Shown: positions 2,581 to 64,000 of the stretch, piece by piece
Position numbering within the stretch: the stretch's first letter is position 1
Layout of the letters: each line of letters begins with the position of its first letter
Virus record (IMG/VR): IMGVR_UViG_3300031975_001631
Source of the DNA: a virus
DNA: 64,000 bases
Strand: one strand, 5' to 3'
Position numbers and translations under genes: made by a program
Notes under the pieces: generated by a model
Told to the model about the DNA's origin: nothing
Seen by the model: the letters and a program-made list of their open reading frames with translations, nothing else
The model's database searches: none

Positions 2581-3759
2581 CTACTTGGAATTCCAGGTCT
2601 TGTCAACCGTAATGTTAGCAAGACGAAACTCATCGTCAACAAACTTCATCATTGACTTGTCATTGTGAACAACATATCCCTCAGGACTTGTGGGAGTTTG
2701 ACCGATAAATGTCTTGATAGTGCGAACTTTGTTGAGTTGGTCAATGACCATTTTCTTAGCAGTACGAATAGAAATATACGCGGCAATCAAGAAGTACAAC
2801 TCACGACGATACATAGCGATGAACATGAGACCATCAGTCTCCATGTTTTCGTATTTTTTCTGAGTTGCAGCAGTTTTCTTCTTGCCCCTCTCAGTTTGAA
2901 TAGCAACTCTGTAGAATTGTGCAAACTCAGCAACCATTGTCTTGGCATTGACAACACCACGACCACCACGGATACGCTGATTGAAGAACTTTTTGAGAAG
3001 AAGGTGCATCATTAGGTTAGATTTACCTTGACCTTGTAGGATGTCAAGAAACTTAGAAGATTGCTTTAGCGCACCTTGTGCGAGATTGATGTGAGCATTG
3101 AATGTATACAGATCTCTTTCATCAAAAAGAGAAGCACCAGTGGCATCAATAAAATTCGCACTGGCAACAAAAACATCCTCAGTAGAATGATACTTAGGGG
3201 CTTTTTTGAGAGGTACAACTTCCGCAGTCTGTAGAGTATCGCCCTTGTATTTTGTATGAAATACGATTCCAAGTTTGGAAAGATGAACGACAGAACCTGT
3301 ACGGGAATGACGATCAACAGCATAAGTAATAGTATTAGGAGTGAAACAAATAACTCTGTTTCCACCGACAATACCGCTTCTCTTGTCTTCTTGAGTGAAT
3401 AGTAAGTCACCTTGAACAATACCAGAGATATTAAGTTGAGGAAGATATTCTAGACAATCTTTGAGCTTTGATGCAAGTTGACCGTTGTAAAAACGATCTA
3501 CATCAGTGTCATCAAAACAAATTTTAGGATTGACTTTGTTGAATACTGATTTAGTACCGACAAAGAAACGACCACTGACAGGTTCAGTGCCACAAATAAT
3601 AGCTGGGGCACCATCCCACTTGGTAGTGATATTTAAGTCACTGGACTTGCCAGATAACATATCACTGAACTGTCGGAGGAAAGTAACAACATTGAAACCG
3701 CCAGCAGTGCCGCTGTTCAGGATCTCGTCTTCTAGGTGCTCAAGGTGGGTGTTTTTCAT
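2581..3759 (-). CDS. Conserved cyanophage protein (DUF6267-like) with covalent nucleotidyltransferase/ligase motifs
   Basis: TKWDG (motif I), QGDLLF (III), EGYVV (IV), MKFV (V) in the correct order. Confidence 0.6.
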   Translation of the reverse strand: MKNTHLEHLEDEILNSGTAGGFNVVTFLRQFSDMLSGKSSDLNITTKWDGAPAIICGTEPVSGRFFVGTKSVFNKVNPKICFDDTDVDRFYNGQLASKLKDCLEYLPQLNISGIVQGDLLFTQEDKRSGIVGGNRVICFTPNTITYAVDRHSRTGSVVHLSKLGIVFHTKYKGDTLQTAEVVPLKKAPKYHSTEDVFVASANFIDATGASLFDERDLYTFNAHINLAQGALKQSSKFLDILQGQGKSNLMMHLLLKKFFNQRIRGGRGVVNAKTMVAEFAQFYRVAIQTERGKKKTAATQKKYENMETDGLMFIAMYRRELYFLIAAYISIRTAKKMVIDQLNKVRTIKTFIGQTPTSPEGYVVHNDKSMMKFVDDEFRLANITVDKTWNSK

Positions 3760-16705: not shown

Positions 16706-16789
16706 TAGGAGTAGAGAGACTTGAACTCTCACGACCATGAGGTCAACAGATTTTAAGTCTGGTGCGTCTACCTATTCCGCCACACTCCC
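16706..16789 (-). tRNA. trnL: tRNA-Leu (anticodon UAA), CCA not encoded
   Basis: GGGAGTG/TACTCCT acceptor stem, D-loop TGGCGGAATAGGTAGACGC, anticodon loop CTTAAAA, long variable arm, T-loop GTTCAAG. Confidence 0.93.
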
Positions 16790-36122: not shown

Positions 36123-36151
36123 ATTATACACAAAAAAAGAGGACTCGTCAA
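36123..36151 (-). promoter_or_regulatory. Sigma70-type promoter overlapping a terminator
   Basis: TTGACG-N17-TATAAT. Confidence 0.75.
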
Positions 36152-36162
36152 GAGTCCTCTTT
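36131..36162 (-). terminator. Rho-independent terminator after the DUF4278 peptide
   Basis: AGAGGACTC-TTGAC-GAGTCCTCT stem plus T-tract. Confidence 0.8.
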
Positions 36163-36181: not shown

Positions 36182-36325
36182 TCAGCTTTTTGATGCGAAC
36201 TTACGCTCAACTTTAATACCACGATACATTAATTCGTGATTTTGACGAGCAGTTTGCTCCTCAATTACTTTTGCTTTGTACTGGTCTGCGTCATACTTGA
36301 CGCCACGGTATGTGATTGTAGACAT
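36182..36325 (-). CDS. DUF4278-like YRG peptide, 47 aa (MSTITYRGVKYD...ELMYRGIKVERKFASKS)
   Basis: Hand translation; two YRG motifs; AGGAG Shine-Dalgarno; lies downstream of a glutamine-riboswitch-like RNA. Confidence 0.8.
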   Translation of the reverse strand: MSTITYRGVKYDADQYKAKVIEEQTARQNHELMYRGIKVERKFASKS

Positions 36326-36386
36326 CGGTTTACTCCTGAAGTTGGGTGAAAATTAACCTTCTCAGCTTTCGCTGGATCCGTTTTTT

Positions 36387-36575
36387 CCCGTTCCTTCAGT
36401 CGTGTGCGTCCCAATACCACCGACACTCTGGTGCTGAGTCCTTAAGGGTCTCAACCAACTCAACCTTAACTTGATTGCTAAGGTTTTGATTATTCTCAAT
36501 CTTCAGCATGATAGCATCAGTTTGAGTACAGGTGAGTGTTGTGTAGAATAATACTTCTAACATGGGATGAACGAC
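36387..36575 (-). ncRNA. Glutamine riboswitch-like aptamer 2 (Downstream-peptide/glnA class) with an ORF inside its P2 loop
   Basis: 5' half GTCGTTCATCCC (36575-36564) and 3' half GGGACGCACACGACTGAAGGAACGGG (36412-36387); CGTTC/GAACG and TCCC/GGGA complementarity. Confidence 0.6.
36396..36563 (-). CDS. Small protein, 55 aa (MLEVLFYTTLTCTQTDAIMLKIENNQNLSNQVKVELVETLKDSAPECRWYWDAHD)
   Basis: Hand translation; two Cys; ATG directly follows the 5' half of aptamer 2. Confidence 0.75.
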   Translation of the reverse strand: MLEVLFYTTLTCTQTDAIMLKIENNQNLSNQVKVELVETLKDSAPECRWYWDAHD

Positions 36576-36621
36576 TCCGTTCCGCGACTTACTTGCGTCC
36601 AGATTGCTCTGGATGAACGAC
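36576..36621 (-). ncRNA. Glutamine riboswitch-like aptamer 1 (compact)
   Basis: GTCGTTCA-TCCAGA-GCAA-TCTGGA-CGCAAGTAAGTCGC-GGAACGGA: P1 CGTTC/GAACG, P2 with GNRA loop. Confidence 0.6.
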
Positions 36622-36627
36622 AGGTCT

Positions 36628-36657
36628 ATTATAGACCACTATCATTATTTATGTCAA
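36628..36657 (-). promoter_or_regulatory. Sigma70 promoter with embedded late-promoter box and a palindrome over the -10
   Basis: TTGACA-N18-TATAAT; spacer begins TAAATA; GGTCTA-TAA-TAGACC. Confidence 0.8.
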
Positions 36658-63911: not shown

Positions 63912-63992
63912 GAACAAAAAAGTAAGACCATCAGGGAATGGTGGAGTTACTATTTTCCTACCACCCTCAGGTAGGAATATTAAAGACGCTTT
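63912..63992 (-). ncRNA. Structured psbA leader, PhotoRC-II-like RNA
   Basis: Hairpins TTCCTACC/GGTAGGAA and AGTAA-CTCC-ACCAT-TCCCTG-ATGGT-C-TTACT upstream of psbA. Confidence 0.55.
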
Positions 63993-64000
63993 TATACACC

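Follow-up and report, generated by a model that had tools for sequence, protein, structure and literature searches.

The stretch of DNA considered here, called the window below, is 64,000 nucleotides (nt) long and is part of a T4-like cyanomyovirus with a record of 179,846 bases in IMG/VR (IMGVR_UViG_3300031975_001631). On its minus strand, to which the whole feature belongs, there is a leader RNA in which the motif pair CGUUCA… / …GGAACGG occurs twice. This gives four glutamine-riboswitch half-sites, and a 55-codon open reading frame (ORF) is located between the second CGUUCAUCCC and the second GGGACG…GGAACGG. It is likely that this RNA is a nested two-junction glutamine riboswitch, with an outer canonical glutamine-I aptamer and an inner, circularly permuted junction. 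As part of the same explanation, and with the same confidence, the region is taken as one transcription unit consisting of a promoter, a structured leader with a gene inside it, a DUF4278 gene and a terminator. These assignments come from comparative sequence analysis and folding predictions.

The locus

The elements of the two-gene unit are:

36628 to 36657, minus strand: promoter, with the -35 box TTGACA at 36657-36652, an 18-nt spacer and the -10 box TATAAT at 36633-36628
36396 to 36563, minus strand: nested ORF of 55 amino acids plus stop codon, with two conserved cysteines, family phrog_504
36182 to 36325, minus strand: downstream gene, encoding a 47-amino-acid DUF4278 / IF17-like peptide with two YRG motifs
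36136 to 36162, minus strand: intrinsic terminator, an 11-base-pair stem followed by a run of T, which ends the two-gene unit

The promoter matches the sigma-70 consensus at 12 of 12 positions, and TTGAC..TATAAT is conserved in an alignment of 87 distinct loci. The predicted transcription start is a few nt 5' of the first CGUUC. The downstream gene is recognised by Pfam as PF14105 (28.2 bits, cut-off 25.3) and belongs to phrog_5049. A second near-consensus promoter (TTGACG-17-TATAAT, 11 of 12 positions, 36123-36151 on the minus strand) overlaps the terminator of the DUF4278 unit and would drive the next gene downstream.

The pattern GACGCA-N10-GGAACGG has exactly two matches in the 64-kb window, both at this locus. 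Since only 0.41 matches would be expected in the window even with two mismatches allowed, the two half-site occurrences are more than chance. CGTTCAYCY has two more matches in the window, at 3281 and 54790, neither of them with the partner motif, and the phage's own 179,846-base record contains no other candidate above E 0.3.

A probable nested fold with two junctions

An earlier note, made from the letters of this DNA alone, had described the leader as a complete aptamer followed by a second aptamer that is split across the ORF. The sequence details that it lists are all correct. The first P2 hairpin does have a GCAA loop (UCCAGA-GCAA-UCUGGA at 36613-36598, loop at 36607-36604, minus strand), the 5' strand GUCGUUCAUCCC (36575-36564) is directly followed by the ATG of the 55-codon ORF, and the 3' strand GGGACGCACACGACUGAAGGAACGGG at 36412-36387 codes for W-D-A-H-D-stop. 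The pairing proposed here assigns these pieces differently:

36615 to 36619, minus strand: outer P1 5' strand CGUUC (a5'), pairing with GAACG at 36393-36389
36598 to 36613, minus strand: outer P2 hairpin (P2a), which covaries strongly between phages
36590 to 36597, minus strand: linking strand CGC (36597-36595) and E-loop half AAGUA (36594-36590), invariant in the 87 loci
36585 to 36589, minus strand: P3 5' strand AGUCG, pairing with CGACU at 36402-36398
36569 to 36582, minus strand: inner P1 hairpin (P1in), made up of GAACG (36582-36578), G 36577, the loop AGU and CGUUC (36573-36569)
36563 to 36567, minus strand: 5' strand UCCCA of inner P2 (P2b), its last A being the A of the start codon
36403 to 36413, minus strand: P2b 3' strand UGGGA (36413-36409), inner linking CGC (36408-36406) and ACA (36405-36403), together encoding W-D-A-H
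36398 to 36402, minus strand: P3 3' strand CGACU, its last U being the first base of the stop codon UGA (36398-36396)
36388 to 36397, minus strand: E-loop half GAAG (36397-36394), outer P1 3' strand GAACG (36393-36389) and G36388

In this fold P3 of the outer aptamer has no capping loop and instead leads into a second junction with the same core letters, where P1 is closed as a hairpin (GAACGG-AGU-CGUUC) and P2 (UCCCA/UGGGA) runs around the whole gene and is followed by CGC. The CGC/AAGUA strand matches the Rfam glutamine consensus CG(G)AAGUA, and the GAAG/GAACG strand matches the Rfam consensus GAAGGAACG. We infer the linking role of the outer CGC by analogy with the glutamine-II crystal structure (PMC6698751); by homology, G36388 would be the partner of the linking-strand C. 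The stop codon of the ORF straddles the border between P3 and the E-loop, and GAAG becomes AAAG in loci with a UAA stop.

Pairs were counted for the nested and the side-by-side parse on the same alignment of 87 loci. Under the nested structure 98.9% of cells are paired, three pairs are changed on both sides, and the structure beats 500 of 500 shuffles on every measure. RNAalifold, run without a prior, pairs GUCG in the first half (within AAGUAAGUCGCG) with CGAC in the last half (within ACGACU), and with the flanking A:U pair this makes the 5-base-pair P3, AGUCG/CGACU. One variant of this helix, AGACU/AGUCU, represents two compensatory pairs, and two others (AGUCG/CGGCU and AGUCG/CGAUU) are wobbles in which pairing is kept. 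A second clade has a longer P3 of eight positions with one covarying pair. On 13 compact forms RNAalifold also predicts the nested P1 helices.

The inner P1 hairpin separates the two parses. Its outer pair is G:C in 77 loci and C:G in 10, with no exception, and in a larger set the counts are 183 and 11 with no mixed case. The ten loci have CGUUG in place of the second CGUUC, and the preceding GAACG is CAACG in exactly those loci, which are fully paired in the nested parse only. This pair corresponds to C5:G36 of the crystal-structure paper, one of two helix pairs that are not highly conserved (PMC6698751).

Side by side, aptamer 1 (36621-36574) would be complete and aptamer 2 would consist of CGUUCAUCCC (36573-36564) and GGGACG…GGAACGG (36412-36387). 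In the window both P1 helices of this arrangement can be drawn, the first of them can form during transcription ahead of the later strands, and Rfam gives a sub-threshold match of 23.7 bits for the first aptamer. The P2 over the ORF is identical in both parses, so that this part of the split aptamer of the earlier note stands, but its P1 is mismatched in the CGUUG loci. There both P1 helices of the side-by-side parse are broken and the GAACG/CGUUC hairpin is kept: the second CGUUC changes together with the GAACG of the supposed first aptamer, which goes against a complete aptamer 1 with a split aptamer 2. Moreover, aptamer 1 would have no GAAG and aptamer 2 no AAGUA as E-loop strand, and neither would have a P3 of its own, the two 5-nt strands pairing and covarying with each other instead. 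It is because the P3 strands and the E-loop halves AAGUA/GAAG are divided between the two supposed aptamers that the four half-sites are read as one nested fold. For the window's sequence the side-by-side fold is also 4.3 kcal/mol worse than the nested one, and homologues without the ORF align as nested in Rfam, above threshold (see below). As the main fold it was rejected on account of the uncompensated mismatches in the CGUUG loci. All in all the side-by-side explanation is unlikely; such a fold may be a transient folding intermediate.

Membership in the glutamine riboswitch family

The gathering threshold of the Rfam model RF01739 is 35 bits. The 23.7 bits found for the window are below this, and a search of 12 ORF-bearing relatives gave no hit to the glutamine model, as the earlier note had expected when it said that standard covariance searches would miss this form. 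The failure on ORF-bearing forms is explained by the model, which cannot span an insertion of about 180 nt. Phage contigs with a few bases in place of the ORF, such as UCCC-UUCG-GGGA, were identified by a pattern scan. The ORF-free homologues L221 and L220 reach 43.6 and 41.0 bits against RF01739, and each is aligned by Rfam as one outer aptamer, with the inner part as an insertion of 38-39 nt in P3. At the level of sequence, these ORF-free homologues settle that the RNA belongs to the glutamine family. A single canonical aptamer from a phage contig (46.2 bits), CGCAAGUA-P3-GAAGGAACGG, has letters identical to the composite outer aptamer.

The features that define glutamine-I are otherwise present. 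P1 CGUUC/GAACG closes the junction and is invariant, hence without covariation; a variable P2 hairpin (P2a) comes right after CGUUCA; the E-loop AAGUA/GAAG flanks P3 with its compensatory and wobble variants; and the site is upstream of a DUF4278/IF17-like gene. In solved structures the letters of the core that contact the ligand are C1, G2, G18/C19 of CGC, C39, G40 and G41 (PMC6698751). The ligand-contact letters are found in both junctions, and binding of L-glutamine is predicted.

The glutamine-II class (Downstream-peptide motif, RF01704) gives a partial match of 20.3 bits in the window, against a cut-off of 33, and the pairs of the 3' hairpin are mismatched. The pseudoknot of that class, in which CGUUC pairs with the 3' hairpin loop (P2 of that class), is not found in the window, and true glutamine-II examples on phage contigs differ in appearance.

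The enclosed gene

The protein encoded by the ORF belongs to phrog_504 (E 1.5e-25), a PHROG family of unknown function. A Pfam search gave no match, and none of its look-alikes in the atlas is named. In five phages of different genera (S-SSM5, S-SM2, S-RIM44, ACG-2014b and S-SKS1) the ORF is annotated as a coding sequence, a hypothetical protein called 'T4-like gene cluster 430'. Protein searches of IMG/VR find 96 relatives with the single sequence and at least 510 with a profile. Among the 87 distinct loci, entropy at codon positions 1, 2 and 3 is 0.64, 0.28 and 0.93 for codons 2-49, and length differences between loci are whole codons (in-frame insertions and deletions), which is typical of coding sequence. 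By these signatures the 55-codon ORF is a real coding gene. In the last six codons the entropy drops to 0.15, 0.19 and 0.03, so that synonymous sites are frozen, and the 7 nt 3' of the stop codon are invariant. Because of this collapse and the invariant bases after the stop, the C-terminus of the protein is dictated by the RNA; the last five codons are in fact aptamer core. A Shine-Dalgarno-like GGAG is found 10-11 nt 5' of the AUG, formed by G36577 and the inner P1 loop. Of 175 ORF-bearing loci, 154 have an inner hairpin loop that starts with AG, and none of 19 ORF-less loci has one.

The claim at the centre of the earlier note, that an entire ORF is nested within a helix of a glutamine-type aptamer, agrees with the comparative data: P2b encloses an ORF of translated, coding type. 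UCCCA pairs with UGGGA (36413-36409), and the unconstrained minimum-energy fold includes this helix. Across 185 distinct ORF-bearing loci there is no non-canonical cell in pairs 1-4 (UCCC/GGGA). Pair 1 is U:A in 180 loci and C:G in 5, pair 4 is C:G in 173, U:G in 7 and U:A in 5, and pairs 2 and 3 show C-to-U variation only. The earlier note had named covariation of the half-sites around homologous ORFs as a check, and for the enclosing P2 it is found, in the compensatory changes at pairs 1 and 4. In five loci a change of GGGA to GGGG offsets a change of UCCC to CCCC, and the protein goes from WDAND to WGAND. Since an otherwise invariant aspartate is given up in these C:G loci, the RNA pair is kept at the cost of the protein.

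A sister case is found in many phages, where the outer P2 hairpin is replaced by a 66-amino-acid ORF (phrog_6471). The AUG of this ORF pairs with a CAU, the U of which begins the stop codon, and the two bases 5' of the AUG covary with the rest of the stop (UC with GA, UU with AA, and C with the G of UAG). Over 67 loci the outer-P2 pair 17:223 is UA in 39, CG in 19, UG in 5 and other in 4, and pair 18:222 is CG in 29, UA in 21 and other in 17. Cells changed on both sides number 40 in this helix, where shuffling gives 19.6 ± 4, and its score was not reached in any of 500 shuffles. Covariation is stronger here than in the helix around the window's ORF. Distant members of phrog_6471 end in GRK-stop, encoded by GGACGCAAGUAA. 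A BLASTP comparison for paralogy of phrog_504 and phrog_6471 found nothing, and hhalign of the two families gives a weak match of 25 columns (E 0.049, probability 1%).

Conservation among cyanophages

Matches to the region are found in 419 phage records, and about 200 distinct cyanomyovirus loci share the layout. Around homologues of the ORF both half-sites are almost invariant, as seen in 127 loci with a delimited ORF: the 5' site reads CGUU[C/G]AUCCC-AUG and the 3' site UGGGACGCA[A/C]ACGACU[G/A]AAGGAACGG, and variants of either are few. The first and last halves are never found apart. A scan of host genomes for GGAACGG-N-CGUUCA gave chance matches in unrelated phyla among the matches listed, the pattern being too unspecific.

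This conservation is relevant to a further explanation, in which a gene was inserted into an ancestral compact riboswitch whose pieces were kept for local jobs and glutamine is no longer sensed. The hairpin would then be an initiation element for the ORF, and the 3' piece an anti-Shine-Dalgarno partner as well as the C-terminus of the protein. Compact ORF-free forms do exist and could be ancestral, homing-endonuclease genes do enter this RNA, and the local hairpin and the platform helix described below are the two helices with the most covariation. A relic of this kind is nevertheless very unlikely. The ligand-core letters of the four half-sites are invariant in about 200 loci from several virus genera, and the invariance covers synonymous sites and bases past the stop codon. 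There are also compensatory changes in the long-range helices P2b, P2a and P3, the two halves do not occur separately, and different ORF families in the same loops all respect the helix boundaries.

Inserts in other loops

Modularity was counted in 203 distinct loci, and the numbers reflect how the loci were fetched. An ORF is present only in the inner P2 in 110 of these, as in the window, in both P2 helices in 65, in neither in 13 and only in the outer P2 in 7, so that all four combinations of short and ORF-bearing P2a and P2b occur. At least two further unrelated small ORF families are found in the inner P2, and these also end in the aptamer-encoded DA[HN]D-stop. In two of the 203 loci the inner P1 hairpin has a GIY-YIG-like endonuclease ORF in its loop.

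Several of the inserts deserve mention by themselves. Inner-P2 ORFs of 59-66 amino acids (in L281, L319, L326, L295 and L251) have two cysteines and hydrophobic N-termini, one of which looks like a signal peptide; export and disulfide bonding may be common features of the nested proteins. The GIY-YIG-like homing-endonuclease ORF is placed exactly in the P1in loop, between GGAACGGAG and CGUUCAUCCC, at full length in L118 (1-600) and as remnants in L064 (380-600) and L090 (430-600). Past the stop of the 55-codon ORF, L070, L097 and L118 contain a partial repeat ACUGAAGGAAAC, a hairpin without a T run, and a third CGUUCAUCCC. This third copy precedes a cysteine-rich, endonuclease-like ORF starting MRQCSKCSEYKPL…, which replaces the DUF4278 gene. 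In L091 (150-570) the outer P2 loop contains about 420 inserted nt without an open frame on the riboswitch strand, and the closing helix UCCCC/GGGGA is kept; the insert may be an opposite-strand gene or a decayed one.

The loops could be permissive sites for small genes that profit from a strong early promoter. In such a hitch-hiking scenario the structure itself is real, glutamine regulates DUF4278 alone, and the switch experiences translation of the enclosed ORF as incidental noise. There are three loops in which ORFs come and go, one of which also takes up endonuclease genes, with the scaffold unchanged, and the energy model keeps the helices around the ORF start in both states, as this scenario would have it. 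Less easily accommodated are the positions of the signals for translation: start codons abut the 5' strand of the enclosing helix, stop codons fall within or at the 3' side of that helix in almost every locus examined, across at least four ORF families, and the GGAG of the enclosed ORF overlaps the core guanines of the inner junction. Their placement fits coupling, though it is not proof of it, and hitch-hiking appears somewhat unlikely.

Expression platform and proposed regulation

Between the aptamer and the DUF4278 gene there are two further elements:

36333 to 36341, minus strand: expression platform, in which CUUCAG (36341-36336) can pair with CUGAAG (36399-36394)
36342 to 36386, minus strand: optional structured spacer of about 45 nt between the 3' end of the aptamer and the Shine-Dalgarno sequence, present in a subset of loci only

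CUGAAG includes the stop codon of the ORF, and CUUCAG overlaps the Shine-Dalgarno sequence AGGAG of DUF4278 (36337-36333). The second base of the stop codon and its partner in the platform form A:U in 36 loci, G:C in 30, G:U in 15 and other combinations in 6, and for the helix CU[G/A]AAG/CUU[C/U]AG 0 of 500 shuffles reach the observed covariation score. The unconstrained minimum-energy fold of the window's leader contains the platform helix, P2a, the inner hairpin and the inner P2. An alternative helix over the ribosome-binding site, as in ON switches of the gifB type, is thus present, and the regulation itself is predicted. Where the spacer occurs, it has a hairpin of the form CAGC-GAAA-GCUG, usually with a GAAA loop, whose stems covary (CAGC/GCUG, CUGC/GCAG, CAUC/GAUG, CUCG/CGAG) and which is flanked by conserved ACGGAUC and GAGAAGGUU.

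For gifB and IF17/DUF4278 genes, glutamine riboswitches act as translational ON switches, and DUF4278 genes are their usual cargo (PMC6212724). When the ligand binds, the CGUUC/GAACG helix is stabilised and the CGC strand lies in its groove (PMC6698751). Without glutamine, CUGAAG would pair with CUUCAG, so that the ribosome-binding site of DUF4278 would be masked, and the enclosed ORF could initiate, most easily co-transcriptionally, before its own 3' end exists. With glutamine, the outer junction would lock and withdraw CUGAAG, exposing the DUF4278 ribosome-binding site (ON), and the inner junction would lock over the GGAG and AUG of the enclosed ORF (OFF). A ribosome that finishes the enclosed ORF would cover P3, the E-loop and the outer P1 strand and would have to melt these elements as well as the inner P2, and because of this unfolding translation would reset the sensor. 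The arrangement suggests reciprocal control with a translation-dependent reset, which is near to what the earlier note had proposed. The full version, in which two glutamine-binding junctions share one P3, a single ligand turns the enclosed gene OFF and the IF17-like gene ON, and terminating ribosomes reset the sensor, is possible and is offered tentatively. Its weakest step is the effect of glutamine on the enclosed ORF, since the inner P1 and P2 are predicted to form in both states and the inner junction has no E-loop.

It is worth setting out what weighs against a nested glutamine sensor. Glutamine binding, long-range pairing in vivo and regulation are all deduced from sequence. The one RF01739 signal in the window, the match to the first half, follows the side-by-side parse. 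Outer P1 and most core positions never vary and are therefore uninformative either way. In each of P1in, P2b pair 1 and P3 the compensatory changes may go back to a single event or a few, passed on by descent or recombination; the five C:G loci of P2b form one protein clade, and the longer P3 of the second clade keeps a constant C-A mismatch. The inner junction, lacking an E-loop, may be a structural copy and not a second binding site, and in the energy model its P1 and P2 are formed whatever the state of the switch. Finally, helices across 170-230 nt of translated RNA may seldom form in cells.

Two other features of the window lie outside this unit. A PhotoRC-II RNA (RF01717) is located at 63942-64000 on the minus strand (40.5 bits, cut-off 39), cut by the end of the window, and a transfer RNA gene with a long variable arm is found at 16706-16789 on the minus strand (54 bits, RF00005).

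Significance and comparison with known systems

The usual view of riboswitch aptamers, on which searches for them depend, is of compact non-coding elements in 5' leaders. In the present case a validated class has a member with whole genes inside its helices and the ligand-binding core still in place, and the C-terminus and stop codon of the enclosed protein are encoded by that core. Only two glutamine aptamers were reported in one survey of cyanophage genomes (PMC5473149), compared with the hundreds of cyanophage contigs in which the nested architecture is found. Should the long-range fold prove functional in cells, the RNA would be a natural sensor that reads a metabolite and ribosome traffic jointly, and one structure would link the sensing of the ligand to translation of the enclosed gene and to control of the gene that follows. 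Under the same condition, reciprocal control of two phage proteins by the nitrogen status of the host would be suggested, many 'missing' phage riboswitches may escape covariance models, and nature would offer a design by which cargo can be placed in aptamer loops. With two functional junctions the RNA would combine metabolite level and translation flux in a single riboswitch. No published description of the nested two-junction form or of ORFs inside a glutamine aptamer was found, in a check that did not extend to Ames & Breaker 2011 and Ren et al. 2015. The glutamine-I class, its cargo and tandem aptamers are known already, and the nested, ORF-enclosing layout is, as far as found, new.

The closest known system is glutamine-I itself (glnA RNA motif, RF01739), which shares P1 CGUUC/GAACG, a variable P2, the linking strand, the E-loop AAGUA/GAAG, P3 and the DUF4278/IF17-like cargo gene. 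In the present RNA, P3 bears a second junction in place of a loop, and the inner P2 (in other phages, the outer P2) encloses a complete gene of translated type. Tandem glutamine riboswitches also have two sets of core motifs per leader; 157 doublets are known, as side-by-side 'pseudo-cooperative' units with separate expression platforms, and the word 'nested' is absent from the tandem-riboswitch review (PMC9481103; PMC2864571). Here, in contrast, the sets are interleaved, with one shared P3 and E-loop and one downstream platform. In the tandem glycine riboswitch two junctions of the same class are joined in one fold with one expression platform, and by analogy a steeper dose response is plausible here too. 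That system differs in class and ligand, and its aptamers lie side by side, held by tertiary contacts, without a coding sequence inside. Group I and II introns with ORFs in peripheral loops, as well as transfer-messenger RNA, likewise show a conserved fold that tolerates whole ORFs in terminal loops. These are ribozymes or a rescue RNA and not ligand sensors, whereas here the boundaries of the ORF coincide with the closing helix and its 3' end is the ligand-binding core. In leader-peptide attenuation and translationally coupled switches, the position of the ribosome on an upstream ORF picks an alternative helix and so controls the next gene. The present case differs from attenuation in that the upstream ORF encodes a conserved protein and not a sensor peptide, and in that the competing structure is a metabolite aptamer.

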